This document shows, one piece after another, positions 3,681 through 30,580 of a stretch of 64,000 bases of DNA. The notes below the pieces were generated by a model. That model was not told the DNA's origin. It searched no databases and was given only the letters and a program-made list of their open reading frames with translations. Source of the stretch: Methanobrevibacter sp. (GTDB lineage: Archaea > Methanobacteriota > Methanobacteria > Methanobacteriales > Methanobacteriaceae). The position numbers and the translations under genes were made by a program. The stretch lies in assembly GCA_017460025.1 (NCBI GenBank), contig JAFUBV010000001.1, positions 39,444-103,443 on the forward strand, read 5' to 3'. Numbering within the stretch: position 1 is the stretch's first letter; every line of letters begins with the position of its first letter.

Positions 3681-3872
3681 ATGGTAAATTTTCTTACAGT
3701 ACGGATAGATGATAAAAAATGTGAACACTGCCTAACATGTGTAAGTGAATGCCCAACAGGAGCATTAACATATTATAAAGCAGGTTTCATGCATTCTGCA
3801 TATGAATGTAGCTACTGTGAATCCTGCATGATGGTATGTCCAAATGACGCAATAAACATACTAGATATGTGA
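3681..3872 (+). CDS. 2[4Fe-4S] ferredoxin
   Basis: Two CxxCxxCxxxCP motifs (CEHCLTCVSECP, CSYCESCMMVCP). Confidence 0.9.
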   Translation: MVNFLTVRIDDKKCEHCLTCVSECPTGALTYYKAGFMHSAYECSYCESCMMVCPNDAINILDM

Positions 3873-7770: not shown

Positions 7771-8919
7771 TTAATTTTTACGAAATTTAGCTAGAATATC
7801 ATCATCGGATTTGTTTTCCAATGCTTCGATTCTCTGTAGGATTGTATCATATTTATTTTGCTGTTCTTTTATTGTTTCTTGTAATTCTCTATTATCGTTT
7901 TCTAATTTTAAAAATTCTTGGCTTTTAACTGTTATTTTTTCAACATCTTTATTCAATAATAATGATGGTAGATGATTCACATATTCATTGAGGAGATCTT
8001 CTGTACGTAACATAAAATAGGATTCATCAGTTATTGTTTTTGATTTACCTTGTAAATCATTGATTAGGTCTCTGCTCATTCCATCTCCTGCTAATGTCGA
8101 TGCATGATATTTCCTCAGCATGTGGCTTCTGAATCTACGATAGTGTCCTATTTTACCTAAGTTTAGTTTATCGTTGATTTCTTCAAAGGATAATGTGAAT
8201 GTTGTGGGGTTTATTTTGAATAATTTGCTTTCTAATGTTATGTTGTCAGTTCTATCTTGTAAGTAATGGTTGATTGCAGTTACACTTTCAGGGCTGCTGA
8301 AGGTAGTGTAATATTTATCTGTTTTGACACGTTTAATTTGCCAAGTGGGTACTACATCACTTGTTTGGTTTAATGTTTCTATTATTTTATAGATATTATT
8401 ATTGTTGTGGTAATTTTTTGTTGCTTTTATATAATCTTTAATGGTTAAACTTAATGTTTCTGCACGTGCAGAACCTGAACTAGACATGAATAGTATGATG
8501 GCTTTCATTACTGGTGATGCTATTTCAATTGCAGAGCGGAGTACCTCCTTGTCAGGCAAGTCTTCTGGACGGATAGGTTCTGGCCTGTTAACATTCTTCT
8601 CATTAAAATTAGGTAAGTTATGGATTTCAATATCAAAGTGACGGTAGAATGCTTGTATTTTGTTGAAGCGTTCACGTGCTGTTTTTTGGGAATGTTTGTC
8701 GTATAAATATACTCGGTATTCTGTTAATCTTTTTTTTAATGTTCGATGTTTCCATCGTATTCCGTTTTCTTCTTCGTTTTCTGCTTCATCAAGTAATTGT
8801 TGTAGTGTCATATTATAATATGAAGTGTATTCGTTCAAGTATATTTTGTATGCTCTGGTGGTGGTGTCTTGTATGTTTCGGGTTTTCTGGAGGTAGTTTA
8901 TTAGGTCTGTGTCTTTCAT
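7771..8919 (-). CDS. Tyrosine recombinase/integrase 1 with C-terminal coiled coil
   Basis: SSGSARAETL (catalytic R), HMLRKY (HxxR), LQGK...Y. Confidence 0.9.
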   Translation of the reverse strand: MKDTDLINYLQKTRNIQDTTTRAYKIYLNEYTSYYNMTLQQLLDEAENEEENGIRWKHRTLKKRLTEYRVYLYDKHSQKTARERFNKIQAFYRHFDIEIHNLPNFNEKNVNRPEPIRPEDLPDKEVLRSAIEIASPVMKAIILFMSSSGSARAETLSLTIKDYIKATKNYHNNNNIYKIIETLNQTSDVVPTWQIKRVKTDKYYTTFSSPESVTAINHYLQDRTDNITLESKLFKINPTTFTLSFEEINDKLNLGKIGHYRRFRSHMLRKYHASTLAGDGMSRDLINDLQGKSKTITDESYFMLRTEDLLNEYVNHLPSLLLNKDVEKITVKSQEFLKLENDNRELQETIKEQQNKYDTILQRIEALENKSDDDILAKFRKN

Positions 8920-8986
8920 TTTTTATCATCTCAAAAATATTTCTCATTATTCTTATGTATATGAGGTATATTTTTATTATGATTTA

Positions 8987-9213
8987 AAAGTATTGGAATA
9001 CTTTAAGGTGTTTGCACTAAACTTATTTTATTATTCCAATACTTATGTGGTGTTTGTTATTGTTTTTAGTGTGTTTGTGTGTAGTATGGTTTTGTTCACT
9101 GAATGTGAACATTTTATAACATCGTTATACTATAATATTATAAAAAAAATAACCTCATAAAAAAAATAATTATGAGGTTAACCTGCCTAAAAGGCAAAAG
9201 AAGTATTCCAATA
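8987..9213. repeat. Three TATTGGAATA sites (one direct, two inverted) between the recombinase genes; candidate att/operator/invertible element
   Basis: 13-bp IRs 8988-9000/9032-9044 and 8991-9003/9201-9213; palindrome AAAGTATT-GG-AATACTTT at 8987-9004. Confidence 0.55.
9142..9180 (-). terminator. Hairpin plus T-tract downstream of recombinase 2
   Basis: Perfect 11-bp IR TAACCTCATAA (9150-9160)/TTATGAGGTTA (9170-9180), followed by a T run on the minus strand. Confidence 0.55.
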
Positions 9214-9249
9214 AAAATAATATAATCATCATCATATAAAAAACTTAAC

Positions 9250-10287
9250 TCATAAAATATTCAACTCCTTACCCGACAAAAAAACATTCACAACAACAGT
9301 AAACTCCTGCTTAACCACATCAGAACTACCAACACTCCCCACCATCACATTACCCATAACATCCATATAAATCTTCTTCAAACGCTTAGGATTCGTCTTA
9401 ATATAAGTCTCATGAACAACATTCTTCGACCTACCCTGCAACGAATCAACATACTCAGCAGTCAAACCAATATTAGAAGCATGAAACTTACGCAAAGTAT
9501 GACTCCTAAAAAAACGATAATTACCTTTAAAACCCCAACCCATCTTATCATTAATCTCCTGAAACCTCAACAACAAATTAGAAGCACTAAAATCAAACAA
9601 CTTATCAGACAATTTCAAATCCTTCCTCGTTTTCAAATACTTCACTATATACAAAGAAGCTTCAGGACTACAAAAAGTATAATAATACTTATCAGTTTTA
9701 ATACGACGTAAATAAAAAGTAGGAACAACATTCTTCTTACGTTCTAATGTATCAAGAATATATTCTAAACTACCACCATTATGATAATCCCTAGTACCAT
9801 TAACAAACTGCTCAACAGTTAAAGACAAAGTCTCCTCCTTGACAGTACCCGAAGATGACATGAACAAAATAACAGCCTTCAAATCAATACTGCAAATATC
9901 TAAAGCCTGACGAATATGAAACTTAGTTGGAAGATCTAAATAATTAATCTCATAATCTTTATTATATTTAGCAACAGGAAGATTAGGAACTTCAATCTCA
10001 AAATGATTATAAACTGTTTTAACCTTCTGCAAATATGTTTTCAAAGTATTAGGAGACATATCACTATCAAAAAGATAATTACGATAATCCAACAATCTTT
10101 TCTTAAGTTTCCTATCTTTCAAAGGAACCTTCTGTTTTTCTTCAAAATTAGCTTCATCTATTAATTCACTTAAAGATTTCTTCTGCACTTTCAAATAATG
10201 TTGGATGGCAGATTGATAACCTTTTCGTGTGCTTTCTTTGATATGTCGTTCTTTGCAGAACTTTTCGAATAATTTTTCATTATACAT
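9250..10287 (-). CDS. Tyrosine recombinase 2 (paralogue of recombinase 1; first catalytic Arg replaced by Lys)
   Basis: SSGTVKEETL, KTDKYYYTF, HTLRKF, LQGRSK...Y; aligns along its length with 7771-8919. Confidence 0.88.
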   Translation of the reverse strand: MYNEKLFEKFCKERHIKESTRKGYQSAIQHYLKVQKKSLSELIDEANFEEKQKVPLKDRKLKKRLLDYRNYLFDSDMSPNTLKTYLQKVKTVYNHFEIEVPNLPVAKYNKDYEINYLDLPTKFHIRQALDICSIDLKAVILFMSSSGTVKEETLSLTVEQFVNGTRDYHNGGSLEYILDTLERKKNVVPTFYLRRIKTDKYYYTFCSPEASLYIVKYLKTRKDLKLSDKLFDFSASNLLLRFQEINDKMGWGFKGNYRFFRSHTLRKFHASNIGLTAEYVDSLQGRSKNVVHETYIKTNPKRLKKIYMDVMGNVMVGSVGSSDVVKQEFTVVVNVFLSGKELNIL

Positions 10288-10516
10288 AAAAAAGATTATA
10301 TTAAAATTTAAATAAAAAAATAGGGAGGATTTTATTTAAAATCCCCCCATATATTTTTTTACCTCATCTCAACATTAATATATTATATTCTTTTTCTTAT
10401 TTTATAGTGATTTAGTGATTAGTAACTTATTTTACTTATATTATTATGTGTATTTAAAATTTTTAAGAAAAAATATAATAGATAAAACAATGCATCACAG
10501 ATGAAAAAAAAGAATG

Positions 10517-10699
10517 TTATTGTACGAAATCCTCATATAATTTGTCTTCCAAATCATCAGGAATATCATACTTATTACGAAGACTATTTAACTCAACTTG
10601 TTTATCTAAAACTTCATCAGTCAAACCTTCTTCAGCAAACTTCTTATTCAATGCTTCCTGCCTAAGCTGAATATCAACTTTCAATTTCTCTATATTCAT
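10517..10699 (-). CDS. Small hypothetical protein
   Basis: ORF overlapping the HNH gene end. Confidence 0.6.
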   Translation of the reverse strand: MNIEKLKVDIQLRQEALNKKFAEEGLTDEVLDKQVELNSLRNKYDIPDDLEDKLYEDFVQ

Positions 10700-11387
10700 T
10701 TAAATCAATCCATTCTAAATTTTTAGCTAATACTTTTTCTTTTAATTTATTAATGTCAACACTTTTAATTTCTTTTCGTTTACCATTATCATCCACATAA
10801 ATATAACGATATCTATATCCTTTCCTATTATTATAAGAATACTCTTTAGAAACTCTATAAAATCCAGTTTCATTCTTTGCTTTAGATAATGATATTTTAT
10901 GGTTCATGTTAAATTTTTTCCCATAATTCGGATTATTTTCACCAGAAAAATGTAATTTTGAATGTTCAGAACTACAAATTAACTGAAGATTAGATATGTT
11001 ATTATTTAATTTGTTTTTATCAATATGGTGTATATGATAACCTTCAGGTATTTTACCATAATGTTTTGACCATACTACCCTATGATACATTCTGGTTTTA
11101 TCAGGGCAATATATAATCATATAACCCTCTTTATTAAAACCACATCTTCCAAATTCTGTTTCAAAAGTTTCCTGATAAAATTTTAATTCCAAATTTGAAA
11201 TATCAAAGTTTTTTTTATTACCGTCTTTGAAAACAATATATGAATGTTCAGGTTTTTCACCATAATATTCTTCCCATACTAAATGATGAACAAATTTCTT
11301 ATGATTATTTTCTTTTCTGCTGGTTATACGGTAGCCTCTTTTTTCATCAAAAGATGCTGACCCATATTTGGTTCTTATTTTACTCAT
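10674..11387 (-). CDS. HNH homing endonuclease (two HNH-like modules)
   Basis: HHLVW...DGNKKNFDISNL and YHRVVW...IHHIDKNKLNNNISNL; start set at ATG 11387. Confidence 0.85.
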   Translation of the reverse strand: MSKIRTKYGSASFDEKRGYRITSRKENNHKKFVHHLVWEEYYGEKPEHSYIVFKDGNKKNFDISNLELKFYQETFETEFGRCGFNKEGYMIIYCPDKTRMYHRVVWSKHYGKIPEGYHIHHIDKNKLNNNISNLQLICSSEHSKLHFSGENNPNYGKKFNMNHKISLSKAKNETGFYRVSKEYSYNNRKGYRYRYIYVDDNGKRKEIKSVDINKLKEKVLAKNLEWIDLNEYREIES

Positions 11388-11500
11388 AGTTATCGCCCTT
11401 TTACTTTTTTTAAAAATCACCCATCTTTGATAGGCGATGTAGATAGGCTGAGTAAAAGAAAACCTACCTACAATCATAATTATTTGTTATCTTAATATAA

Positions 11501-12640
11501 TTAATTTATGGTTAATATTGCTACACTTTTCTGACTTATACCATTAATATATGATTGCTGGGTGCTTTTCGACCTGTTTTCAATATATCCACAGTAAGCC
11601 GGATAACTACAATATGAACCTAAACTGTTTAATATTGTTAAAGTATCCCCTACACTTTTAATTACTTCATAATGACCGTATTTATCGCGATAACTTAAGT
11701 GAAAGAACAATGCTCCATTATTAATGGCATGTTGTATTTCATCCCAAGTCATTTCACTTTTATTTTTCCAGATCATTTTTAGATTGTAACCATATTTTTT
11801 ATTAAACCATGCGAGACCTGTTTCTAGGCCTTGATGGCTGGTACCTGCTGAAGTGGTTCCGCAGACACTAGCTAATGTTGCTTCGGATAATTCAATACCT
11901 GTTAAACGATAGATACATTGCATCAGGCTGTGGGGTCCGCAACGAACACCATTGGTTTGGCCGAGTTTTCCTCCACCCTGAACGGTAATATATTGATATA
12001 ATTTAGCAGGTGTTGGTTCAGGTGTAGGCGTAGGTTCAGGTTCCGGTTCATTAACAACAATAATATTATCCACACTAGAAGCCAAATGAGTATCATTACC
12101 ACTAAAAACACTATTAACAGGATACTTACCAGGACCAAGATTAATATTCAACCTTGCCAAACCATCAGCACCAATTTCACGAACATAATTAACATTATTC
12201 ACAGTAATAGTGACAGTACCACCCACACGACCAACATCATCATAAACAGCACACATATACTGCGTACCATCCTTATAAATCATATTAACATCAGTACCTT
12301 CCATACGAGTAGCTTTTTTCTGAGCTTTAATAGTAATATGTGCAAATGCAGTGGCAAGATTATAATCATCATCACTGAAAGAAATTAAAGGAGTGTATTC
12401 TCCAGGACCAAGATTAATATTCAATCTAGCCACACCATCACTATCGGTTTTACGAATATAATCTTTTCCATTAACATTAAATCTAACATCTCTATCAGTT
12501 AAAGCAGTTTTACCATCATATAAAGCAACTTCTAACTGGTCTTTTTCACCATAAGTTTTAATTAAATCATAAGTGATTAAATGTGCATCTTTTTTATTAT
12601 TACTAAATAATTCTTTTAAAAAATCAAAAAATCCCATCAA
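11501..12640 (-). CDS. Putative endolysin: two adhesin-type Ig-like repeats, PT linker and C39-like cysteine peptidase (PeiR-like pseudomurein endopeptidase)
   Basis: DG(V/L)ARLNINLGPG(E/K)Y twice; PEPTPTPEP linker; Q....CGPHS, GHYE, NSLG catalytic pattern. Confidence 0.8.
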   Translation of the reverse strand: MMGFFDFLKELFSNNKKDAHLITYDLIKTYGEKDQLEVALYDGKTALTDRDVRFNVNGKDYIRKTDSDGVARLNINLGPGEYTPLISFSDDDYNLATAFAHITIKAQKKATRMEGTDVNMIYKDGTQYMCAVYDDVGRVGGTVTITVNNVNYVREIGADGLARLNINLGPGKYPVNSVFSGNDTHLASSVDNIIVVNEPEPEPTPTPEPTPAKLYQYITVQGGGKLGQTNGVRCGPHSLMQCIYRLTGIELSEATLASVCGTTSAGTSHQGLETGLAWFNKKYGYNLKMIWKNKSEMTWDEIQHAINNGALFFHLSYRDKYGHYEVIKSVGDTLTILNSLGSYCSYPAYCGYIENRSKSTQQSYINGISQKSVAILTIN

Positions 12641-12656
12641 AAAATCCTCCCTTTTT

Positions 12657-12791
12657 TTATTTCATTACATAATGGTCATTTTTTCTAGCTTTCAAAATGC
12701 ATCTTCTACCTACAATGTAACAACATTTTTCTAGGTCATGATCACAAGTTTGTCTTTGACAACAACCATCACATTCAACTATTTTTTTCAT
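12657..12791 (-). CDS. Small Cys-rich protein (44 aa, MKKIVECDGCCQRQTC...)
   Basis: Read manually; ATGA overlap with the upstream gene; 7 Cys. Confidence 0.45.
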   Translation of the reverse strand: MKKIVECDGCCQRQTCDHDLEKCCYIVGRRCILKARKNDHYVMK

Positions 12792-13051
12792 TTTACCACG
12801 ATTTCAGCTTCTTCTTCAAGAACAATTGCTTTAACAGTACACTCTTCTTGTTCGGTGAATCCGCAGATACCAATACCTTTTATGTCAGTGATGGTTTTAG
12901 CTAGAAGATTTCCATTTTTTTCAAATGTGATTGGTTTTTGCGGTTGGTCTGTTTCAGCTGTGATTTCGATTATTTCGATAGTAGTTTCATTTTCGTTTTC
13001 GTCTTCGAATTTTTCTTCTTTTTTTTCAAATTTTAATTGTATCATAATCAT
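12788..13051 (-). CDS. Small acidic hypothetical protein
   Basis: GAGG RBS; ORF. Confidence 0.6.
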   Translation of the reverse strand: MIMIQLKFEKKEEKFEDENENETTIEIIEITAETDQPQKPITFEKNGNLLAKTITDIKGIGICGFTEQEECTVKAIVLEEEAEIVVK

Positions 13052-13115
13052 ACCTCGGTAATTTTTTTTCTGTTGAGTTTTGTATGAGAAATGAATCTGA
13101 TTATATTTTGGTTCA

Positions 13116-13568
13116 GTGAAAGATACAGCTAATTTATTAAACCATAGTCAATGGAGTGCTGGCGACTATGATAACACAAATATATATAATACTTTAAACA
13201 CTATTAGAACTACCAATGCATTTTACACTAATGAATATTCTGGAATTGGAGAATACTCTATCAAAATGATAAAACAAGCAGCAACTGGAGCATATTGCAG
13301 GGTAAAATATAATAATAGTATTCATAATAAAACTGTTGTCGCATCAGCAGCAATTAAAACAAATAATTATAATTCACAGTTAATTTTATTAGAAATTAAA
13401 AATGATACTATAATTCAACAAGAAACGGTAGTTATACCAGCAAATACTGAAGGAATTTTCACTGTTTCGTTAGTTGCTGGAAATGATAATGATTCTTTTA
13501 TTATTCAATTTAATAATTTAGGTCCTATTGATTCTTTTATACATGTTGATGATGTTTGCTTAATTTAA
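13116..13568 (+). CDS. Silent tail-fibre C-terminal cassette A (CBM-like domain), inverted
   Basis: VKDTANLL...WSAGDY...IGEYS...VDDV; homologous to the fibre C-terminus; begins at GTGAAAGATAC. Confidence 0.82.
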   Translation: MKDTANLLNHSQWSAGDYDNTNIYNTLNTIRTTNAFYTNEYSGIGEYSIKMIKQAATGAYCRVKYNNSIHNKTVVASAAIKTNNYNSQLILLEIKNDTIIQQETVVIPANTEGIFTVSLVAGNDNDSFIIQFNNLGPIDSFIHVDDVCLI

Positions 13569-13573
13569 AGTTA

Positions 13574-14038
13574 GTGAAAGAAAACCAAAACTTGATGGAC
13601 ATCAACTTATGGAGTGGTGGCGAATACAATAACACCCTAAACAATATACAATGCAATCAAGATAATCAAAAAGTAATAATATCTGACGAATACTCTATTA
13701 ATGGTGAAACATCATTCAAGATAATGCGTGGTGGAGGAACAGGATATAATTGGACTCGATTCAGAGTTCCGTGCACAGAAACGGGAAAAACAATGACTGT
13801 GAAATGTAGAATATATTCACCTAACGCATCAGCAGACATATGGTTGTGTGATATGAATGGTGGATCAACCGAAGGAGAACGTACAAGTATTAGAGTGTAT
13901 CCATCAAAGAATGTAATGGAAATAAGTTTAACATATACTGGGAAATTAACTACTTTAACCCATTATGCATTACGTATTAACTTATTAAATGATGATACAT
14001 ACTTATTCGTTGATGATTTAAGTTTAACGAGTAGTTAA
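13574..14038 (+). CDS. Silent tail-fibre C-terminal cassette B (CBM-like domain), inverted
   Basis: VKENQNLM...WSGGEY...NGETSF...FVDDL; begins at GTGAAAGA. Confidence 0.8.
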   Translation: MKENQNLMDINLWSGGEYNNTLNNIQCNQDNQKVIISDEYSINGETSFKIMRGGGTGYNWTRFRVPCTETGKTMTVKCRIYSPNASADIWLCDMNGGSTEGERTSIRVYPSKNVMEISLTYTGKLTTLTHYALRINLLNDDTYLFVDDLSLTSS

Positions 14039-14464
14039 TCTAATATTATCAATATAAAATAATGCATCAGCACTACGAGTTAATAATGTGGCTTGTACTT
14101 GTTGAGTACTTGATATTGTACGTGAAACCGTGAATTCACCTGTACTGCCTGCAGGAATGTTTACATCAGTCATTAAATTAGTGGATATTTCTTGAAGTCT
14201 TAATTGTATTGTTCCTCTTATGACTTTAATATTTGCTTGTAAAGTAAGGACACTGTTTATTTCTCGGGAAGCACGGTTAATTATGAAATTGGTTGCGTCT
14301 GCACTTTTACTTCTTATTCTGAAACTTGTTTCACCGATATATGACCATTCATTGCTTATTATTATTTCATGATTTGCATTTGTACGGTATATTCCGCTTA
14401 AGTCATTACTATATTCTCCTGCACTATATGGATTATAATCAAGTAAGTTAGTTGTATCTTTCAC
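14024..14464 (-). CDS. Tail-fibre C-terminal cassette C (CBM-like domain)
   Basis: VKDTTNLL...YSAGEY...IGETSF...YIDNI; begins at GTGAAAGATAC, overlapping the fibre stop codon. Confidence 0.82.
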   Translation of the reverse strand: MKDTTNLLDYNPYSAGEYSNDLSGIYRTNANHEIIISNEWSYIGETSFRIRSKSADATNFIINRASREINSVLTLQANIKVIRGTIQLRLQEISTNLMTDVNIPAGSTGEFTVSRTISSTQQVQATLLTRSADALFYIDNIRLTTR

Positions 14465-16026
14465 TGAATTAACTCTAATTTTATATTATCAATATAAATA
14501 TATCCTGTGAAAACATTCCATCTACACAGTAATGAAGTGTAATCTCCTGAATTAATAGTAACACTTACGTTTTGGGGTTTATTTGATGCATAAATAGTGA
14601 TATAATTATATTCCCCACCATTTTGTTGAATTAACATATTTACTCTTGATACTGGTGCGTAAATGGATGCTGATAATTTATAATTTTTATTTTTTTCAAC
14701 ATCGACTGATAATGTAGTATAAGCTTTTACAGAACTAGTATTATTTATTAGTTTTAAACTGTTTTCACCAATATCCGAATAAATTTTAGTTATTTCATAA
14801 ATGTTATTTGATGATTCGTAAAAACCATCAATATTATTTGAATATTCTCCTGCTGACCAAACATTATGTCTAAACAGGTTTTCTGTATCTTTCACAAACA
14901 CTGATAATATATTACTTCTCACAACAGAACCATTAATCGTAGCTTCAGCATACATATAATGAATACCCACACCAAGATTCTCACATGAAATATCGGTTAA
15001 TTTAATAGCATGATCAATCATAGTGTATCCAGTCATACTATTTCCACTGTTTGTAGAAGAAGTACCTAATACTGTTCCGTCTAATAATTTAAAAGTAACT
15101 GATTGAGTAGTACTTTCTTGTTTCACACCATTTTTATAAACTTCACAATACAAATCCATACCTTTGGTGTTTTCAGCAGGTAATTTATCTGAACTTGTCT
15201 GAGAGTATTGTACTTGTGCAGGAAGATACACACCAGTTAATTTTAATGAATAATACTCTTTATTATAAAAGCTAACAAAAGGACTTGGTATATTAGCTGC
15301 AGTCATGAGGTTAGCATTATTTATAAAATCTAATACCCTTCCAATGTTAATACGGTCTTTTTCAGTGAACCCTACAATTTTTGATTGAGTATCAGCAGCA
15401 TTTTGTTTAGCATCCAAAGCAGTAAACAAACCGCCACTAGTAACAGCATTATTGGAAGCATCAACAGGTGCTGCATCTAATTGAACTAAACCTTTAGCAC
15501 TAGTAGAAGCATTAGTATCAGGGATTTTGATTGTGCGGTCTGTAACACTGGTAACATGACCCATATTATCTGTTGCCACTTGAGAAACAGTAGCAGTACC
15601 CCCAAAACTTGGTGTTTGGTTAGCAGTAGGCTTACCTGTTAAAGCATTACTTATAGTATTATGATTTACTGTGGTTCCAGATTTACTTAAACCGGTTCCT
15701 GCAGTATCTAATTTACCACTAATATCTTGATGAGTAACTTTGTTTGCAGGTAATTTACTAATTGTTTTTAAGTTATTTGATGCGTCTGTAACAGCAATCT
15801 TATTAACTGTAGTAATATCACTGTTCAAAGTACCTGCATTCGCTAAACTACCATGTGTATGACTTGAAGCGGCACGACTTGTATCTGTTGGGTGAACATG
15901 GTCTTCTCTTGCAACATTTTCACTTGTACCTGCACTTTGAGTTCCATTCATTTTAATTTGTGATGCTGTTGAACCTAATTGGGTTCTGAACCATTCTTTT
16001 ATGTTTGCTGTAAATCTTGTAACCAT
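14461..16026 (-). CDS. Tail fibre/receptor-binding protein with exchangeable C-terminal CBM-like domain (cassette D, 14461-14895)
   Basis: Fibre motifs (AREDHVHP, HTHG, KGLVQL); C-terminus VKDTENLF...WSAGEY...YIDNI. Confidence 0.85.
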   Translation of the reverse strand: MVTRFTANIKEWFRTQLGSTASQIKMNGTQSAGTSENVAREDHVHPTDTSRAASSHTHGSLANAGTLNSDITTVNKIAVTDASNNLKTISKLPANKVTHQDISGKLDTAGTGLSKSGTTVNHNTISNALTGKPTANQTPSFGGTATVSQVATDNMGHVTSVTDRTIKIPDTNASTSAKGLVQLDAAPVDASNNAVTSGGLFTALDAKQNAADTQSKIVGFTEKDRINIGRVLDFINNANLMTAANIPSPFVSFYNKEYYSLKLTGVYLPAQVQYSQTSSDKLPAENTKGMDLYCEVYKNGVKQESTTQSVTFKLLDGTVLGTSSTNSGNSMTGYTMIDHAIKLTDISCENLGVGIHYMYAEATINGSVVRSNILSVFVKDTENLFRHNVWSAGEYSNNIDGFYESSNNIYEITKIYSDIGENSLKLINNTSSVKAYTTLSVDVEKNKNYKLSASIYAPVSRVNMLIQQNGGEYNYITIYASNKPQNVSVTINSGDYTSLLCRWNVFTGYIYIDNIKLELIQ

Positions 16027-16148
16027 ATTAACGATTCCTCCTTAAAAAAAATAATGATCTTGAATAAAAATTAAAATATTAAAATTTGTGAATAAAAATG
16101 AAAAAAGAAAAAAAAGAGAATAGGTAAGAAAATTTAAATATTTTCTTT

Positions 16149-17303
16149 TTATTCTCCTGAGGTTTCCCCTACTTCAATTGTTAAAATACCTGTGGTGGTG
16201 TCGAATGATACATCAATATCTGATGCTTCTAGTTTACTGTCTAATTCATCAGTGACAGCAGTTGCTAATTTTGCACGGGTTACTCCACCATTTTTAATGC
16301 TGAAAGTATTGTTCTGACTGTTTAATTCTAATGTAGAATTATCTGCATTGTATGTGTCGATTAAATCATTTACTGGTAAAATTAAATCAGTTGGGTCGTC
16401 TGATTCTTGAGTGTTGACAATGAAGAGTATGTATTTGTCACCAGTGTTTAAACCAGCAGCTGATTCTTCTTCGGATGGTGTTGCACCAACAGTTTCCAAT
16501 GTTGCGGATTTGACAAGATAATCTTTAGGTATATTAATTTTACTACCGACTTGTGTACCGTTTTGTTTTACAACATACGTTGCAGTGTAATTAGAGTCAG
16601 CGGTTGCTTGTTTTTCAACTGTTACAACCCCACCAAGGTCGGATAAAGTTGGTTTGTTTGATAAATCAGCATAACTACCACTAGTTGCTACAGTTGCAAG
16701 GTCAGATGAATCTGCTTTAGCATCCAATTCATCTTGAAGGTCAGTGACATCACTTATTGCATGACTGTGGCTGGATGCTGCTTTTCCAGCTAAACCATCA
16801 TATACTGCTTTTGCAGAAGGATATTGAGTATCAGTGGAGGATGCGGTTAAACTAGTTACTTTATTAGATGAATCTTCTTTACCAGAAACATCTGATGCAA
16901 CAAGATAACCAGAATCATTAGTTAATTCAGATACAGCAGTAGGAATATCTGCAGTGTCTGCTTTATCAGCTAATTCATCATAGACTAATTTAGCAGATGG
17001 GTATTGATCATCAGTTGAAGCGGAAGATAAAGTGGTTACTTTGTTAGATTTATCTTCTTTACCTGTGATAGATTGATGTTCAGTTAAAAAACCACTATCA
17101 TTAGTTAACTCTGAAGTTTTAGTTGGGATATCAGAAGTATCTGCTTTACCATTCAACATGGTGTCTATTTCAGTTTCTGTATAGTATATGTCACCGTGTT
17201 CGTGTGATGCATCTGCTTTACCATTCATCATGGTGTCTACTTCATCTTTATCATATACTAAGCTTTTAATAAAATTTTTAATATTTACTGTAAATTTAGC
17301 CAT
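16149..17303 (-). CDS. Tail fibre-like repeat protein
   Basis: Repeats IPT..SELTNDSG, KED.SNKVT....STD.QYPSAK, H.H..SDVTDLQ. Confidence 0.75.
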   Translation of the reverse strand: MAKFTVNIKNFIKSLVYDKDEVDTMMNGKADASHEHGDIYYTETEIDTMLNGKADTSDIPTKTSELTNDSGFLTEHQSITGKEDKSNKVTTLSSASTDDQYPSAKLVYDELADKADTADIPTAVSELTNDSGYLVASDVSGKEDSSNKVTSLTASSTDTQYPSAKAVYDGLAGKAASSHSHAISDVTDLQDELDAKADSSDLATVATSGSYADLSNKPTLSDLGGVVTVEKQATADSNYTATYVVKQNGTQVGSKINIPKDYLVKSATLETVGATPSEEESAAGLNTGDKYILFIVNTQESDDPTDLILPVNDLIDTYNADNSTLELNSQNNTFSIKNGGVTRAKLATAVTDELDSKLEASDIDVSFDTTTGILTIEVGETSGE

Positions 17304-17341
17304 ATAAGTTTCCCTCAAAAAAAAGATTTAATTTGTTTTTT

Positions 17342-17962
17342 TTATTTTTCGAAAGTCAATTCACCAGTACTGAAATCAAAATCAAGGTTTTTAATATAAC
17401 CTTCTTCTTCAAGAAAAGCTTTAATTTCAGTTTTAGTTACTATATCTTGTATCAACTCGTTTAATTGAGCTTCATCTACAAAACTATTTAAACAAACACT
17501 ATCAACCAGTTTATCATTATTGTAACATTGTAGGCATTTATCTACTACTACCATGCTGTCAATAACATTGTCCAAGCGATCGAAAATATCGACGAAAATG
17601 TCTTTTTCATCATGACCGCAGTTATTTGTGTGATGATGGTGTTTTGTGTAACCACTACTCATTAATGGTATTGTAACATTGTTTGTAGTGATTAGGTCTC
17701 CGCCGTAGACGGTGATTTTGAAAAAAGTACCTGTTAAACAACTGTCTGGTACAATACAACTACATAAATCTGCTTTTCCCAGATGTATGGTTGTTTTGTT
17801 TCCCCATGAATCTGTGAATATTGCGAATTTGTTTACATCATGCCATAATGATCCTTGGAAACAGAATGATGTTTTCACAATATTTTTTGATTTTGCTATG
17901 AGGGTTGTTTTGTCGGTTCTTTCGAGTAGTTGATCAGTTACTGTATATTCGGTTTTAATCAC
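17342..17962 (-). CDS. Baseplate/fibre-attachment protein (BppU-like N-terminal domain)
   Basis: F.F....W.....AIF...C.VP...L pattern; fibre cluster context. Confidence 0.5.
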   Translation of the reverse strand: MIKTEYTVTDQLLERTDKTTLIAKSKNIVKTSFCFQGSLWHDVNKFAIFTDSWGNKTTIHLGKADLCSCIVPDSCLTGTFFKITVYGGDLITTNNVTIPLMSSGYTKHHHHTNNCGHDEKDIFVDIFDRLDNVIDSMVVVDKCLQCYNNDKLVDSVCLNSFVDEAQLNELIQDIVTKTEIKAFLEEEGYIKNLDFDFSTGELTFEK

Positions 17963-18005
17963 AAGATATCATCCTCCAAAGATAATAACATATTTTTTTT
18001 TGAAT

Positions 18006-18968
18006 TTAATCTACTCTTAATTTTATGCTGCGATAAATTTGATAGTAGTTTCCGGAACCTACAAACATGAAATGCATGTCATATGTTCCTGGGTCTAAAT
18101 TGATACCTATTGTTCCACCATTATCAATATTCCTATTTGCACCGTTAATAGTATATTGTATTGTTGTGTTTGGGATTTGATAGTTACTGATAGTAGGATA
18201 TGAGTCTGCAGGGTTACCTACAGATTCTTGGTCAAAAAGTATAACTTTTAAACGAGTACCTCTATCAATAGCAATTAAGTTTTGATTAGTAGCATCTTTA
18301 TCTGAACTAATGTATAATCCAGGAATTCTTTTTTTAGCTTTCGCACCTTCGGTGATGCCATCTAATTTTATTTTATCTGCACTAGACATTAAACCTCTAT
18401 TAGAACTACTTGCCATAGTTAATCCTGCTTTTTTATCTAGTTCGGCGAGGATTAATCTTGATTCTATTGGATTTGTACTTTCTTGAATCCATTGATTATC
18501 CACAGTAACTAATTCATCTTTATCTGCTTTATCTGCCAAATCATCTGCTAAACCTGTAATATTATTAATTGTATGAGTATGATTAGCATTTGCTTTATTA
18601 CTTAGAGCTGAATTAATCACTTTGTTTTGTACCGGATTGGTGGATGAATTATTTAATGCTGTGTCGATTGCATGAGTATGATTTGCATTAGCTTTATCAT
18701 CTATAGCTTCTTTAAGTATTTTATTTTGAACTGGATTTGTAGATGAACTGCTTAATGATGAATCGACTGGATGTGTATGATTAGTATCTGATTTGGCATT
18801 TAATTTTGTTGTTACTTCGGTTTCAGTGAAATAACGGTCATCATGAATATGGTCCACATCAGATTTTGCATCTAAAAGAGTATCCATATCACTTTTCGGA
18901 TAAAAATGTGATTTCATAGCTTCTTTAATATTGCATAATAAGTCACTTATACTGTCTATTTCAACCAT
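18006..18968 (-). CDS. Tail fibre-like repeat protein
   Basis: HxH repeats, SSTNPVQNK twice, GLMSSADKIKLDGI; C-terminal Ig-like INLDPGTY. Confidence 0.75.
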   Translation of the reverse strand: MVEIDSISDLLCNIKEAMKSHFYPKSDMDTLLDAKSDVDHIHDDRYFTETEVTTKLNAKSDTNHTHPVDSSLSSSSTNPVQNKILKEAIDDKANANHTHAIDTALNNSSTNPVQNKVINSALSNKANANHTHTINNITGLADDLADKADKDELVTVDNQWIQESTNPIESRLILAELDKKAGLTMASSSNRGLMSSADKIKLDGITEGAKAKKRIPGLYISSDKDATNQNLIAIDRGTRLKVILFDQESVGNPADSYPTISNYQIPNTTIQYTINGANRNIDNGGTIGINLDPGTYDMHFMFVGSGNYYQIYRSIKLRVD

Positions 18969-18972
18969 ATTA

Positions 18973-19764
18973 TCATTCCTCCATTGTTATCCAAGATGCC
19001 TGACCATGAAATACCCCATTACCTCCGCTACTGATAAAAGCAGAGATGCCTCCATCTTCATGTACCACAATATGCTGACTTCCAACGACAACATCATCAA
19101 TATAAATTTTTGTTGGAGGAAGACAATTATCCGGTATTTTTAGGTTTGTGGGGAAATACATGTCTCTTGCCTGACTATTTGCATGCCATTCTACAATATG
19201 TAATGAAACAACATTTCCTGATTTATAGAGTTTCCACTTACTATGGCGAATTTCATCACTATCTATTTTTGTTGGAGAAAATGAACCTTTTAAATCCGTG
19301 ATTTTTTCATCAAGGACATATCCTTGTTTTGCAGATAATGCTTCACCGTTACGGAATGTTTCACTATTTAAATTATCTATTGTTTTTACATGACCATAAA
19401 CACTATTAGTTCCTAAGCCATATTCTGCAGTAGTGCTTGAATGTGATTTAGGAGTATAAGTGTAATTAGGTATGTTTTCTATTTTAAGAAATTTATCACT
19501 AGTTATTCCATTAAATAAGGTTGCATTAATAGTATTTTTTCTTAAAGAATTAGTTAAAATGTCTTTTAATTCTCTGACACTTATATACGTAGAATCTAAG
19601 TTATCTAATTTGCTTGTTAATTCATCCAATCGTGTCTGGTCAACTAATGTGATTTTATCAATTACATCTTCTCCATCATAGATAACTACTTCGGCACCAA
19701 TACTGTCTCCAGTACTGTTTGTTTTGTAACATCTTACTTTAAATTCTGTCATAAAATAAAACAC
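18973..19764 (-). CDS. Tail fibre-associated protein
   Basis: YGHVK and ALSAKQGYVL fibre motifs; beta-rich C-terminal tip. Confidence 0.65.
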   Translation of the reverse strand: MFYFMTEFKVRCYKTNSTGDSIGAEVVIYDGEDVIDKITLVDQTRLDELTSKLDNLDSTYISVRELKDILTNSLRKNTINATLFNGITSDKFLKIENIPNYTYTPKSHSSTTAEYGLGTNSVYGHVKTIDNLNSETFRNGEALSAKQGYVLDEKITDLKGSFSPTKIDSDEIRHSKWKLYKSGNVVSLHIVEWHANSQARDMYFPTNLKIPDNCLPPTKIYIDDVVVGSQHIVVHEDGGISAFISSGGNGVFHGQASWITMEE

Positions 19765-19773
19765 CCCATTTTT

Positions 19774-22065
19774 TTATGATTTGTATTCTATGTAATTTGG
19801 TTCAATGACCACTTTGTCATCTGTATTAATACGTGATGCACGATAGCCTAGACTAATGCTGTTATCATCTAGGTTTGGAGTGTAAACTATAGTTATGATA
19901 TCATTTAATTGTATTCTTGGTGATTCTCCATCGAAATTAACAATGTCTAATATAATTGCTTGTTCTTCAATGTGATAGTCAATGTTTTCAATTAATTGGT
20001 ATTCATTAGCCGTTCCTGATTCACTGTTTATCACTACTTTTCGTATTGGGTCTACAGGTTCAGCTCTTAAATCTATCCTGTAATTACTAATCATATCTTC
20101 GGATACAACAATATTCTCTTCGAAATAATCAAGTATTAATCCTTCGGTTCCATCTTCTCTCAAACCTACTTCGTTACTGTTTAATCCTTCAATGAAGATT
20201 GGATTATAACTTACACTTAATGTTCCTTTAGGTAAAAGGATATCATCAAAGAATGTTAATGTGTTTTCATCGTAATCAACAAGATAATCATACCATTCAC
20301 CATAATTAACATTTAATTCTCCGCTTGTTGATGGTTGTAAAACACAGCGAAGTGTTGGATATGCAGGTTTATTTTTGAATTGGAAATCTGTTATGAATCC
20401 ACGAATATAAAGGTTTTCGTTTCTTAAACGAGCTATTAAAGTAGGTTTACCTTCCAAATAATCAATTATTTGTGATTCACTTTTACCAGTTATATCTGAT
20501 GCGATATTTAAATCTTTTAGTGAAGGTAGGTTTGCATAATTTATTAGGTCTGTTGGATCTATTATGATGAAATGTTCCATTACTTCTTTTTCACGTATGA
20601 TTTCTACTGTGCATTCTGTGTTTGGGTCGTTTTTGAATGGTGCGTATATTCTGCCCCACACATTAGCAGATAATATTCCTGTTAATGGTGGTGAGTATGC
20701 TTTTGTTCTAACATACATTTCAGTTGGCACTTCCATTTCTAAAGATAATGTTATATCTTCAATGTATGGTGTTACTTGACCGTTACTTTTCATTATTGCT
20801 CTTAAGAATAATACGTTAGTTGGATTATTGAATATTAAGCTTCCACTTTCTGATATAGGTTGCCATGTTCTACCGTTTTGGGAGACTTCAAATCTTAATG
20901 TATGTCCTTCTGTTGCAGTGTCTCCTGAACAGTTACTTGCTAACATTATTTCTTTTATTGGATTAGCGAAAATTGGTTTGAAATAAACATAAAACTCTTG
21001 ACTTGAATCATAACCTGTTTTTAATTCTTTAATATGGCATTGGAATGCAAAATCTTGTGGAGCATATTTTCCTTGATGGTAATCTACTTCTTCATCATCT
21101 TTACCATATCGAATCCAAGTATAACCACAATTGAAACTGTAGAATGCATTTCCCTCTTCATAAACATCTGCATGGCAATGTGCGTTCCATCCGCCAATCC
21201 AGTAACAATTGGTTGGATGTGATAATGGGGATAATACTACGATAGCATATGTTTCATTTTTCTCAACTGTGCAAGGATGGTCAAATACTACACTATAAAC
21301 TCCAGGGTCAGTGTTATTGAATTTAACTTCTTGATAAGCTAAATGATTCACACCACTATCCACAGGCACATATATTCCATCAATTAGTTCTGTTTTTCTT
21401 ATTTGTACTATTAATGGCATTCCGGTATTATTTGTTCCATGAAGATTTAACACTACTGATTCAAGTAAACCTGTTGATTTCGCTTTGAATGTTTGAGCTC
21501 TTGAAATACCTGGTATCTCACCATTCAACATGTTTTGTAACCAGTTAGGTCTTGTTTCATAATGTCTGTTCCTATCAAAACCAACATACCAAAATTCATT
21601 ACAGGTCATATCATCAGATATAACATTTCCATCTTCATCTCTAATAGTCCACGGGCTGTAATTCCTTGTATCATTATTAACTGATGATTCTGTGATTCTG
21701 GGTACTTCAAACTTCTGAACAACACCATTATTACTAATAAGGCTTGTTCTAACAGCAGTAGTTTTATCAATATCAATATAATCTAAATCATTGAAATCGA
21801 ATTGCAGAATCTTATGTGTATTACTATCAAAAGTTATTGTTTTATTTTCATTTTCATTATTGTACCCATAACTGTATAATTCTTCAACAGGTATTGTGGA
21901 GAATACTTTTCTTACTGCAGGTGGTGTTAAATATTCTAATTTATCCACCATCTTTTTAAGGTAAGCATCGTTTTTACAGAACTGTCTTAACATATCGGCA
22001 GTCACATATTTTTGTTCACCGAAACTATTCAAACCTAAGTTCCGATATTCAGCTGGACATGGCAT
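19774..22065 (-). CDS. Large virion structural (baseplate/fibre) protein
   Basis: 763 aa, beta-rich, located in the baseplate cluster. Confidence 0.6.
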   Translation of the reverse strand: MPCPAEYRNLGLNSFGEQKYVTADMLRQFCKNDAYLKKMVDKLEYLTPPAVRKVFSTIPVEELYSYGYNNENENKTITFDSNTHKILQFDFNDLDYIDIDKTTAVRTSLISNNGVVQKFEVPRITESSVNNDTRNYSPWTIRDEDGNVISDDMTCNEFWYVGFDRNRHYETRPNWLQNMLNGEIPGISRAQTFKAKSTGLLESVVLNLHGTNNTGMPLIVQIRKTELIDGIYVPVDSGVNHLAYQEVKFNNTDPGVYSVVFDHPCTVEKNETYAIVVLSPLSHPTNCYWIGGWNAHCHADVYEEGNAFYSFNCGYTWIRYGKDDEEVDYHQGKYAPQDFAFQCHIKELKTGYDSSQEFYVYFKPIFANPIKEIMLASNCSGDTATEGHTLRFEVSQNGRTWQPISESGSLIFNNPTNVLFLRAIMKSNGQVTPYIEDITLSLEMEVPTEMYVRTKAYSPPLTGILSANVWGRIYAPFKNDPNTECTVEIIREKEVMEHFIIIDPTDLINYANLPSLKDLNIASDITGKSESQIIDYLEGKPTLIARLRNENLYIRGFITDFQFKNKPAYPTLRCVLQPSTSGELNVNYGEWYDYLVDYDENTLTFFDDILLPKGTLSVSYNPIFIEGLNSNEVGLREDGTEGLILDYFEENIVVSEDMISNYRIDLRAEPVDPIRKVVINSESGTANEYQLIENIDYHIEEQAIILDIVNFDGESPRIQLNDIITIVYTPNLDDNSISLGYRASRINTDDKVVIEPNYIEYKS

Positions 22066-22098
22066 GGTTAATTATTCCCTCCTAGAAAAAATTTTTTT

Positions 22099-22776
22099 TT
22101 ATTTTGTCTGAACAACAATTTCTAAAGTTGTTGGATCATCTATTGAATTTAAAGTTTTAATATAAACATTTTTTGAGTTCACATCATAGTAATATGAACC
22201 TTCATATAATTCAGTTAAACAGCTAACTTGATTGTATCCTGAACCGCTACTGTATTCCACTACACCAACAACATTATTAGGTTCATATACATAGAATGCT
22301 CCATTATCTGCAGTTTTCCAGTCACTACGAACCCCACCAGTTATTAGGCTGAAGTCATAATTAATGTGGATGGTACTTGTGCTGTTTCCGAGAAACGTTG
22401 ATGATATTCTTTTGAATATATCGTGGCTTATTAATATTTCATCATTAGCTACTCCGATTTCTGTAGTGTCTAATACTTCACTTGCAGTTACATCGCAGGT
22501 TAAGTTTAGTTTTTTTGTTTTAATGTCTGCTTTTCCAGTACAGTTTTTACGGACTGTTTCCCGTCCAAGTTGGATATCTGTTTTTAATGGTCTTGCAGTT
22601 CCTTTTCCTAATACGATGTATTTAATAACATTGAATTCATTGTTTATCCATCTGTTTAGGAAGAATGATTCTCCTTGTAATGTTATTAAATTTGTGCCTT
22701 TGATAAGTATTTTTGTATTTAAAAACATTGTTTGGAGAGGAATACTTATTGTATACTCTCCTTTCACATTAATCAT
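22099..22776 (-). CDS. Baseplate/tail-collar protein
   Basis: NLITLQG...YIVLGKG...EIGV pattern typical of fibre-collar N-terminal domains. Confidence 0.55.
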   Translation of the reverse strand: MINVKGEYTISIPLQTMFLNTKILIKGTNLITLQGESFFLNRWINNEFNVIKYIVLGKGTARPLKTDIQLGRETVRKNCTGKADIKTKKLNLTCDVTASEVLDTTEIGVANDEILISHDIFKRISSTFLGNSTSTIHINYDFSLITGGVRSDWKTADNGAFYVYEPNNVVGVVEYSSGSGYNQVSCLTELYEGSYYYDVNSKNVYIKTLNSIDDPTTLEIVVQTK

Positions 22777-23039
22777 ATTATATCAACTCTTTTAACTGTA
22801 TTATCTATAGTTAATGATAGTTCTGAAACTATATCTATTGTATTATTTAATTCTTTTTCACCAGTATCTAAGTCTAAATGTACTGTTTTTGATAATGGTG
22901 TTAATTTCTGAATTCTATCAGATAAGTTCGGAACATCTTCTATTGGGATGTTTGATGGTATTTCATCATGTTTAAATGATAAATCATAATCGTTTGGTGT
23001 CCAGTTGAATTTGGACCTCATGTATTTACAATTTTTCAT
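22773..23039 (-). CDS. Hypothetical virion protein
   Basis: ATGA overlaps on both sides. Confidence 0.6.
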   Translation of the reverse strand: MKNCKYMRSKFNWTPNDYDLSFKHDEIPSNIPIEDVPNLSDRIQKLTPLSKTVHLDLDTGEKELNNTIDIVSELSLTIDNTVKRVDII

Positions 23040-27004: not shown

Positions 27005-27005
27005 A

Positions 27006-28163
27006 TTACACCATCTCAATTGTAATTATGTTCGCAGTACCAATTTCTTCATCAGTAATCGTAATATAATTTTCAGGAACATTAAAAGTAATATTTTTCA
27101 ATTCAGGAATCTGTTTATCCAAGAAAGCACCTAGTTTATAAGGAATGAAATCTTCTCCAATACTCAAACCTTTATGATACTCACCAGTGACGATATTTTT
27201 ACCACCATCAATGAATAGTTTAATAGCAGAAACTATTTTAGATTTAATTTCTTCCTTTTCATTACTACTGTAAGGATTAACACGGTCAATATCAACATCC
27301 ACTACCGCATAAACATTAATTGGAATTTTAACTGGAGCGGTCATACAAATATCTTCACTAGCTTGACTAATTTGTGATTGTAAATCATTATATGCTTGAC
27401 CTAACTGATAATCAGTTCCAGGATCTAAAATAATTTTAATTGTTCCAGAACCATCCCAATTAGGAATAAAACTATAACCATCTAAACCATCGAAATTATC
27501 TAGATAATTAATGAAAGCCCATTCGTTCCCTTTTTGGAAGATTTCTTTATGATGTTTTAATAATAAACGGTATTCTTCGTCATTAAAACCTTCACGGCCT
27601 CCACTACTAGCACTTCCATTATTAACTCTTGTGGAAGATTGTGTTGATGATAAATCGGATTCTAATTTAGAAATCTGATTTTCAATAATAATACTACCCG
27701 TTCCAGGGTTTACTGCTACAGCATTAACTGTACCTGTTAATTCACCTGTTGGAATATATAATTCTTCTACAGTACGATAACTAATACCGTTTTGAGTAGT
27801 TACTAATATTCCTGGAGATTCTAACACATCAGTATCCTGATCATGATTTAATGTGAATGTTACTTCCACACTTGCACGTGTAGCTTGAGGCCTAGGAATT
27901 CCTAACATTAATCCAATATCATCTAAATCAGAACCTATTGCATGATTGATTTTATCTGAAAAATAAACTTCAGTCATATCAGAATATACCTGTTCAAAGA
28001 TTTCAGAATGAATGCTTAACAGCATAACATAAAAGTTACTTATGTCTTGTTTATTACTAACGTATCTTTCAAATTCTTCTTGATGACTAATTAAACTTTG
28101 TTTTAAAGCTTCATTCAAAGCTTTTAGAAAAATTTCTTTATAATATTTCCTTACATAAGTCAT
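27006..28163 (-). CDS. Baseplate J-like wedge protein
   Basis: AIGSDLDDIG..LGIPRPQAT.A, AVNPG.G, GG...NDEEYR motifs. Confidence 0.85.
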   Translation of the reverse strand: MTYVRKYYKEIFLKALNEALKQSLISHQEEFERYVSNKQDISNFYVMLLSIHSEIFEQVYSDMTEVYFSDKINHAIGSDLDDIGLMLGIPRPQATRASVEVTFTLNHDQDTDVLESPGILVTTQNGISYRTVEELYIPTGELTGTVNAVAVNPGTGSIIIENQISKLESDLSSTQSSTRVNNGSASSGGREGFNDEEYRLLLKHHKEIFQKGNEWAFINYLDNFDGLDGYSFIPNWDGSGTIKIILDPGTDYQLGQAYNDLQSQISQASEDICMTAPVKIPINVYAVVDVDIDRVNPYSSNEKEEIKSKIVSAIKLFIDGGKNIVTGEYHKGLSIGEDFIPYKLGAFLDKQIPELKNITFNVPENYITITDEEIGTANIITIEMV

Positions 28164-30562: not shown

Positions 30563-30580
30563 ATTAACTCACCTCCCTTT

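Follow-up and report, generated by a model that had tools for sequence, protein, structure and literature searches.

A probable shufflon-type inversion switch for the receptor-binding tips of the tail fibre in a Methanobrevibacter virus

Introduction

The Rin shufflon of dnaJ2-integrated prophages of Bifidobacterium (Mavrich et al. 2018, PMC6109161) is, in architecture, the closest described match to the tail-fibre locus reported here. In Rin, a constant N-terminus of the receptor-binding protein (RBP) is followed by small variable C-terminal cassettes without start codons. An 11-bp asymmetric site stands before each cassette, a tyrosine recombinase flanks the array, and isomers are found between relatives (PMC6109161). 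In archaeal viruses, inversion in phiCh1 switches tail-fibre proteins of differing adhesion (Klein et al. 2012 as cited in PMC10791045), and in the haloarchaeal Int1 region two convergent full fibre genes flank int1 inside the invertible segment, with crossovers at clusters of repeats (PMC6210493). This two-partner inversion of the phiCh1 type is the only archaeal precedent found in the literature searched; a review of archaeal recombinases draws no link to Rci (PMC8371274), the tyrosine recombinase of the R64 shufflon. Herein, a fibre gene with three spare tip cassettes is described in a stretch of 64,000 nucleotides (nt) from Methanobrevibacter sp. (assembly GCA_017460025.1, contig JAFUBV010000001.1, positions 39,444 to 103,443). 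This whole stretch is called the window, and positions are counted from its first letter. The locus is probably a multiple-inversion, shufflon-type switch of the receptor-binding tip of the tail fibre in a 77,099-bp tailed virus of Methanobrevibacter.

Methanobrevibacter is the chief source of methane in both the rumen and the human gut. To our knowledge, almost nothing is known about how the viruses of methanogens find their hosts.

Results

The fibre gene and its tip cassettes

The open reading frame (ORF) of the fibre runs from 16026 to 14461 on the minus strand and encodes 521 amino acids (aa), the last 144 of which form the expressed tip, named E. Three further tip cassettes follow, C in the direction of the fibre gene and A and B in the opposite direction, antisense to a late gene block of about 40 kb that is read in one direction only (Table 1). 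These four ORFs and the antisense position of A and B had been proposed in an initial annotation, and all were borne out. Tips A, B, and C align with tip E from the first to the last residue at 28-31% identity and with one another at 22-29%. The motifs K-[DE]-x-x-N-L, WS-G-[DE]-Y, IGE-S, and [IV]D[DN] are common to the four tips.

Each tip begins at the same short sequence, as the initial annotation had noticed and the site comparison bears out. The core GTGAAAGA is present at four of four junctions in identical codon phase, where it is read as Val-Lys-Asp/Glu, and GTGAAAGATACA is present at three of the four. Five matches to GTGAAAGAWA occur in the window against 0.89 expected, a count reached by none of 100 shuffles, and four of the five are the tip junctions, located within 1.8 kb with two on each strand. 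Two inverted repeats given earlier as perfect, of 16 bp (13112-13127/14453-14468) and 13 bp (13116-13128/14883-14895), are exact. The fibre stop TGA overlaps the GTG of cassette C, confirming that the site at 14464 supplies the stop of the expressed tip.

Inversion in silico between 14895 and 13116 produced an open fibre of 527 aa, and inversion between 14895 and 13574 one of 531 aa. Cassette C was joined to the fibre after two inversions, giving an open fibre of 523 aa. These results agree with the earlier claim that one inversion would fuse A or B in frame and that C needs two.

The following mechanism is proposed. The constant part of the fibre (aa 1-377) would be joined at the 8-bp core to one of four tips of about 145 aa resembling a carbohydrate-binding module (CBM), and the three other tips would be kept silent, presumably lacking a promoter and a ribosome-binding site, without an upstream reading frame and each led by a core in the same phase. 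A site-specific recombinase, most likely the one encoded at 9250-10287, would cut and rejoin the DNA within the core. Recombination of the fibre core with an opposed cassette core would invert the intervening DNA, so that the cassette is fused in frame to the constant part and the former tip is parked in silence. A and B would be one inversion away, and C two inversions or one deletion. The tips presumably differ in the surface glycans that they bind, and the switch would thereby alter the host strains to which the virion adsorbs. We infer the identity of the enzyme, the exact point of strand crossing, the rate, and the host-range effect, as well as activity in this particular virus.

The same design recurs in relatives

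Relatives were collected by a search with the fibre protein, by look-ups of the encoding contigs, and by a scan of 300 genomes of the family. In that scan, the arrays were confined to the genus of the window, in 7 of its 89 genomes. The same design was found in at least 12 virus or provirus loci of Methanobrevibacter, with 3 to at least 27 silent cassettes (Table 1). The array with at least 27 cassettes exceeds by far any shufflon known to us. The N-terminal part of the fibre is 36-62% identical to the fibres of these relatives. Other searches gave nothing: a protein-pattern search with the single fibre found no relatives in IMG/VR or in species genomes, exact junction patterns had no match in IMG/VR, and tblastn of the fibre against GenBank phages had no match. 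The sole match of the junction pattern in JGI metagenomes and one of two matches in species genomes lacked tips and were rejected as chance.

Tips of the types of silent A and B occur fused to fibres elsewhere, which was counted in favour of interchangeable tips. The nearest fused relative of cassette B is the tip of P0121 (66% identity), and those of cassette A are the tips of P0004 and P0010 (43-44%). The flanking genes of the window and of its closest relative, L008, are about 90% identical, but no pair of tips between the two exceeds 34%. The tips turn over far faster than the remaining genome. No orthologous tips are shared by the window and L008, and no comparison of cassette order is possible between them.

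A core that varies with the lineage and an orientation rule

The core was analyzed in 86 cassettes. The first 8 bases are uniform within each genome, the fused fibre junction included, and differ between lineages in their first codon (GTG, GTA, or ATA before AAAGA). The core is GTGAAAGA in the window, L006 to L008, and L051 to L055; GTAAAAGA in G250, G254, and G092; and ATAAAAGA in G262 and G282. TGTTT precedes the core at nine of nine fused junctions, and the silent copies carry unrelated sequence at that place. The site is thus made up of a conserved core, a conserved arm on the coding side, and a free arm on the other side. More than two sites stand in both orientations at one locus, with four cores in the window and up to 28 in relatives, and the junction between constant and variable parts allows an in-frame exchange of the C-terminus in the same phase across the 86 cassettes.

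If the sites lie at the 5' start of the cassettes, if the starting state is all inverted, and if only opposed sites recombine, it can be derived that inversions will always preserve one order. Direct cassettes stay near the fibre and inverted cassettes beyond them, with one unbroken tail-to-tail boundary. All arrays follow this rule. The cassettes are all inverted in L007, L008, L055, G262, and G250; the order is direct, inverted, inverted in the window, and direct, direct, inverted and so on in G247. The motif at the B/C boundary (14024-14038) recurs in L007 and L008, where it separates the expressed tip from the first of the inverted cassettes.

The relatives also differ from one another in arrangement. 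Loci L051, L052, and L053, from three samples, have constant parts that are 95% identical in protein and 95-98% in nucleotides, with expressed tips at 25-33%, and the tip that L052 expresses is found in L051 as the second cassette, where it is silent (94.7% of nucleotides identical). The clearest case is a block of three cassettes found in two different samples, SAMN15829904 for L051 and ERZ28018966 for L065: L065 2663-3787 equals L051 8828-9952 over 1,125 nt with one mismatch (99.91%), and the homology begins 1 nt 5' of the core. L051 carries the block as an in-frame continuation of its fibre, whereas the L065 copy is silent and inverted, placed after the 3' end of another cassette and beside the distal flank (small ORF and Ig-like gene), which is oriented as in the window. 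L051 and L065 thus appear to be inversion isomers of one virus, with a breakpoint at the core; the orientation of the fibre in L065, where the gene itself is unseen, is taken from the synteny conserved in every complete array.

The evidence from relatives moves the inversion reading from plausible to well supported. The earlier proposal that interchangeable tips are exchanged by inversion at GTGAAAGA is supported by the recurring design, the co-variation of the core, the orientation rule, and the pair L051 and L065.

Several details of these loci were recorded. The first tip of the shared block, tip X (L051:8829-9191, L065:2664-3026), has 120 aa both when fused and when silent, and the C-terminal [IV]D[DN] strand that is usual in the tips is absent from it. 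This tip is either naturally short or defective though expressed in L051. Two independent assemblies of the one virus both break about 235 nt into cassette Z (L051 near 9952-9959, L065 near 3787-3800), and L065 ends in 28 nt that duplicate part of cassette Y. At G247:C86 (L046), positions 1-78, 34 nt of the constant end of the fibre are joined in frame to inverted cassette 4, after a 30-bp perfect fold-back that is typical of a contig end. Little weight is given to this junction, which may be a minority recombinant or an assembly artefact. The last cassette of G247:C90 was considered as its reciprocal product and rejected as a paralogue, being only 93.6% identical to tip 1.

Two tyrosine recombinases near the array

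Two paralogous tyrosine recombinases are encoded 3-5 kb from the array and outside it (Table 1). By tblastn, recombinase 2 is 91% identical in L008, 80% in G247, 79% in L007, and 56-59% in G254, and it is adjacent to the array in all of these; it is linked to an array in five loci. For recombinase 1, tblastn gave 61-63% identity in L007 and L008, and a copy was found neither close to the G254 cassettes nor in the 2.2 kb past recombinase 2 on G247:C90. Both proteins show a weak alignment to archaeal XerA in which HxLR and the Tyr are kept (PDB profile, E 3.5e-4). NCBIfam gave only remote XerA/XerC matches far under the cut-off, and the Pfam Phage_integrase threshold was passed by recombinase 1 only (30.4 against 27.1 bits). 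No likeness specific to Rci was found in either recombinase from these XerA/XerC-like profile matches, which did not include a direct comparison with the Rci sequence. No serine recombinase, that is, no resolvase/invertase gene, was present among the neighbouring ORFs scanned against Pfam.

Recombinase 2 is the best candidate for the invertase, since it is better conserved than recombinase 1 and stays beside the arrays; we give it about an even chance of having this role. Recombinase 1 is probably an integrase and could also be the invertase. The catalytic residues are unusual for a tyrosine recombinase: recombinase 1 of L007 also has Lys at the presumed Arg I, and the usual third His is Arg or Lys (LQG[RK]S).

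Observations that weigh against an active switch

Several results count against the inversion reading or against its activity in this virus. In the alignment, every recombinase 2 orthologue has Lys at the place presumed for Arg I. No recombinase adjoins the array in G262 or G250. The recombinase 2 orthologue of G262 and G282 is on a separate contig (C81 in G262), and G250 is without a close orthologue (best match 39%). The arrangement in the virus of the window was checked in assembled Logan contigs, which drop rare variants, and those of three samples (X1, X3, and X4) show only the window arrangement over 11000-18000, free of any difference. Twenty contigs, all from one study but from several of its samples, carry cassette C, again in a single arrangement. 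Sixteen of the 20 were reported with the gene neighbourhood of the window (one was aligned), and the five cassette-C places that were fetched, together with L054 (reached via P0001), are colinear with the window over the matching parts. None of the words expected at recombinant junctions, for any of the 12 pairings, occurs in the assembly from which the window comes. The alternative orientations anticipated by the initial annotation were therefore not seen in this virus itself.

The single arrangement excludes frequent switching. It does not exclude rare switching, because contigs hide minority forms. Phage Mu likewise keeps one orientation during lytic growth.

Two irregular ends were rejected as rearrangements. 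An odd joint in X1 (14970 to 13010, with 34 foreign letters) and loose ends proved to be matches of 18-30 nt to unrelated contigs and not cores. The terminal 33 nt of L054 that differ from the window lie inside cassette C and not at a core, and they were taken as an artefact of the scaffold end. Sample X5, from another study, holds only fragments of a relative of about 91% identity, and these cover no tip.

Alternative explanations

The array may instead be an archive for homologous recombination or gene conversion, as in pilS/pilE or vls, with no dedicated invertase. Tips would then be replaced rarely through the conserved 5' stretch and a 3' motif, and the neighbouring recombinases would be integrases. 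This agrees with the one arrangement on all 20 contigs of the study and with the large arrays of G262 and G250 that have no recombinase beside them. The cassettes are also conserved past the 8-bp core, over about their first 14 codons (some 40 nt), and the 3' ends of tips E and C share a 23-nt direct repeat (91%). Homologous recombination at the conserved stretch of about 40 nt could have been the agent of the events between relatives, a further point against inversion. However, gene conversion leaves orientation free, yet the silent cassettes are overwhelmingly inverted and the direct-then-inverted rule is universal. The difference between L051 and L065 is a rearrangement of the reciprocal type that starts 1 nt before the core and not a patch. 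The synonymous positions of the first two core codons are invariant within each genome, but those of the following codons vary, and a conserved recombinase paralogue is linked to the array in five loci. The archive explanation is considered unlikely.

A shufflon that was active in an ancestor and is frozen in this virus is less probable still and would come as a surprise. The loss could lie in recombinase 2 (Lys for Arg I) or in the insertion of an HNH gene. The window's recombinase 2 reads SSGTVKEETL where the orthologues read SSGTAKAETL, the HNH gene stands between recombinase 2 and the Ig-like gene in this virus alone, and one arrangement is seen across the samples of the study. Decay is nevertheless hard to reconcile with three intact silent cassettes and four perfect cores. 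The recombinase 2 orthologues with 79-91% identity all carry the Lys, a sign of a selected function, and the 90% flank identity to L008 without any tip pair above 34% points to recent turnover of the tips.

The coding evidence bears on whether the cassettes are independent small genes, each producing a free CBM-like protein of 145 aa, for example an adhesin that docks on the fibre via its N-terminal peptide. GTG would be the start codon, and translation of cassettes 3' of the fibre would rely on stop-start coupling at a GTGA overlap. Every cassette of the window does begin with GTG, a possible start, and the overlap of the GTG of C with the fibre TGA is a classic coupling layout. A profile built from 18 tips also matched 386 clusters (50% identity, E <= 1e-10) among 1.8 billion representatives, most of them gene-called as stand-alone proteins of 140-155 aa. 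The cassettes are clearly coding: 74 of the 77 silent ones are complete with 130-165 codons, the other three being truncated by contig ends, and in 43 cassettes no stop interrupts the reading frame, whereas the two other frames contain 563 and 871. However, more than 40 cassettes belong to the GTA and ATA lineages, where the first codon is conserved yet cannot serve as a start, and upstream of it the median open stretch is 6 codons. ATG is never the first codon in the 86 cassettes, and the same codons are internal to the fibre at the fused junctions. A and B are antisense to the late block, and one cassette is fused in one genome and free-standing in another that is 99.9% identical. Independent genes are scarcely credible on this evidence. 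Intact coding without a start and a core that co-evolves with the expression site are predicted for recombination cassettes, which these appear to be, and neither is predicted for independent genes.

A diversity-generating retroelement was dropped, as no reverse transcriptase was found in the ten neighbouring ORFs scanned (7771-22065) and no template repeat was noticed.

Predicted fold of the tips

AlphaFold was used to model the tip from the alignment of 18 tips, and a confident beta-sandwich was obtained (pLDDT 87.8). The best PDB matches are CBM22, CBM4, CBM16, and distal domains of phage tailspikes, with TM values of about 0.7 and a match probability of 1.0 for the three CBM families. The Pfam model CBM_4_9 (PF02018) reached 23.4 bits against a cut-off of 25.9 in 2 of the 18 tips, and the tip profile also reaches genuine multi-CBM_4_9 proteins. 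The model supports a CBM4/9/22-like jelly roll for the tips, as the description of the tips as CBM-like had suggested, and it is reasonable to suppose that they bind glycans.

The virus and its host

The window is part of contig C273, in a 2.36-Mb bin of 423 contigs assigned to the genus Methanobrevibacter. C273 has 130,604 bp, in which a unit of 77,099 bp recurs without any change (a 1.69-fold concatemer). Logan contigs with lengths of 77,129 bp (the 77,099-bp unit and 30 bases of overlap) and 77,115 bp cover 11000-18000 with zero differences. From this exact period and the Logan contigs of about 77.1 kb, it follows that the element is a circular or circularly permuted genome of 77.1 kb in these samples and not an integrated provirus. 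C273 ends at window position 14062, inside the array and away from any core, and no meaning is attached to this.

The terminase, portal, prohead protease, SU10-type capsid protein, baseplate J, and fibre-repeat proteins encoded by the element identify a tailed virus. In a relative, the array adjoins a protein with pseudomurein-binding repeats. Together with the genus of the relatives, these features support the earlier attribution to a methanogen virus.

Genes flanking the array

The 87-aa ORF that follows the array in the window borders every array distally and is oriented like the fibre. Its identity is 95% over 37 aligned residues in L008 and 46-52% in L007, G247, and L065. It could encode an accessory factor or a fibre assembly protein. 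An HNH_3 endonuclease gene (10674-11477, minus strand) lies between recombinase 2 and the Ig-like gene in this virus only. L007 and L008 have merely an ORF of 59-63 aa at this position, and the HNH_3 gene is therefore probably a mobile insertion.

Table 1 Features of the fibre locus in the window and cassette arrays in related Methanobrevibacter loci (relatives under our own labels).
Feature	Position	Strand	Size or content	Remarks
Tyrosine recombinase 1	7771-8919	-	382 aa	Coiled-coil tail; paralogue of recombinase 2, 39% identity
Tyrosine recombinase 2	9250-10287	-	345 aa	Conserved beside arrays, 56-91% identity
Ig-like (Big_3_5) protein	11501-12640	-		Conserved distal flank; domain scan and synteny
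Conserved small ORF	12788-13051	-	87 aa	Borders the array on the far side
Silent cassette A	13116-13568	+	150 aa	Inverted; core 13116-13123
Silent cassette B	13574-14038	+	154 aa	Inverted; core 13574-13581, begins with GTG at 13574
B/C stop overlap	14024-14038		15 nt	Tail to tail; single direct/inverted boundary of the array
Silent cassette C	14024-14464	-	146 aa	Direct; core 14457-14464
Expressed tip E	14461-14887	-	144 aa including core codons, plus stop	Predicted CBM4/9/22-like beta-sandwich
Expression-site core	14888-14895	-	GTGAAAGA (V-K-D)	Proposed crossover site; site comparison
Fibre constant part	14896-16026	-	aa 1-377	Ends S-V-F (TGTTT) directly 5' of the core
L007			4 silent cassettes	
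L008			4 silent cassettes	
L055	9604-16215		Fibre and 14 silent cassettes	All inverted, nearly back to back; 69-kb contig, another sample
G262:C71 (L039/L040)	16029-31056		Fibre, then at least 27 intact silent cassettes	All inverted, 15 kb; all begin with ATAAAAGA
G250			6 silent cassettes	
G247			At least 5 silent cassettes	Over two contigs
G282			Cassettes only	3.2-kb contig
L051, L052, L053, L065			Partial arrays	

Discussion

A reversible, built-in library of tips, if true, would explain how such a virus tracks strain-level variation of the pseudomurein surface of its hosts. The system offers defined candidate adhesins, one 8-bp site, and one or two candidate enzymes. Several hundred "hypothetical 145-aa proteins" in public catalogues would be silent fibre tips and not genes. 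The finding is of interest both for archaeal virology and for programmed DNA rearrangement. It would extend shufflon-type switches to arrays of many tips in archaeal viruses. Such switches had been described in plasmids and phages of bacteria, and for Archaea only in the form of the two-partner phiCh1 inversion. The suggestion that the system may be undescribed holds in the literature searched, in which no fibre shufflon of methanogen viruses was described and which did not cover Medvedeva et al. 2023 (Nat Microbiol 8:2170). Taken together, the wider claim that these are the first archaeal shufflons and, at 14 and at least 27 spare tips, the largest known arrays for programmed inversion, with a new Lys-for-Arg clade of recombinases and a host-range library drawn from several hundred tip types, is tentative, and we doubt it slightly more than we trust it.

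Comparison with known systems

The R64/IncI1 shufflon (Rci, sfx, pilV) resembles the proposed switch in its multiple inversions among more than two sites, in the in-frame exchange of an adhesin C-terminus, and in its tyrosine recombinase, which here is a candidate enzyme. The sfx sites are also asymmetric, with a short core, one conserved arm, and one free arm. Asymmetric sites in the Rci work favour inversion over deletion. In R64, by contrast, the adhesin belongs to a conjugative pilus and is encoded on a bacterial plasmid, where 7 sfx sites accompany 4 segments.

Gin of Mu, Cin of P1, and Min of p15B swap the C-termini of phage tail fibres by inversion for host range, and Min shares the multiple crossover sites. 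These systems use serine invertases with an enhancer and Fis and carry a fibre assembly gene in the segment, whereas the cassettes here hold tips only. The Int1 systems of phiCh1, phiH1, and ChaoS9 (PMC6210493) are also found in archaeal tailed viruses, where inversion by a tyrosine recombinase switches fibre proteins. Unlike phiCh1, with essentially two partners, the present locus has an array of tip-only cassettes without repeat clusters, a single 8-bp core, and recombinase genes outside the array.

Rin shares a short asymmetric site at each cassette (8-10 bp here), a tyrosine recombinase near the array, and a gut virus as its carrier. The Rin host is bacterial and its tips are like the TP901-1 RBP, whereas the tips here are CBM4/9-like. 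In Rin the recombinase adjoins the cassettes, whereas here the small ORF, the Ig-like gene, and, in this virus, the HNH gene intervene. Rin holds about 3-5 cassettes, compared with 3 to at least 27 in the Methanobrevibacter arrays, and the sizes of 14 and at least 27 are far above those described for R64, Min, and Rin.

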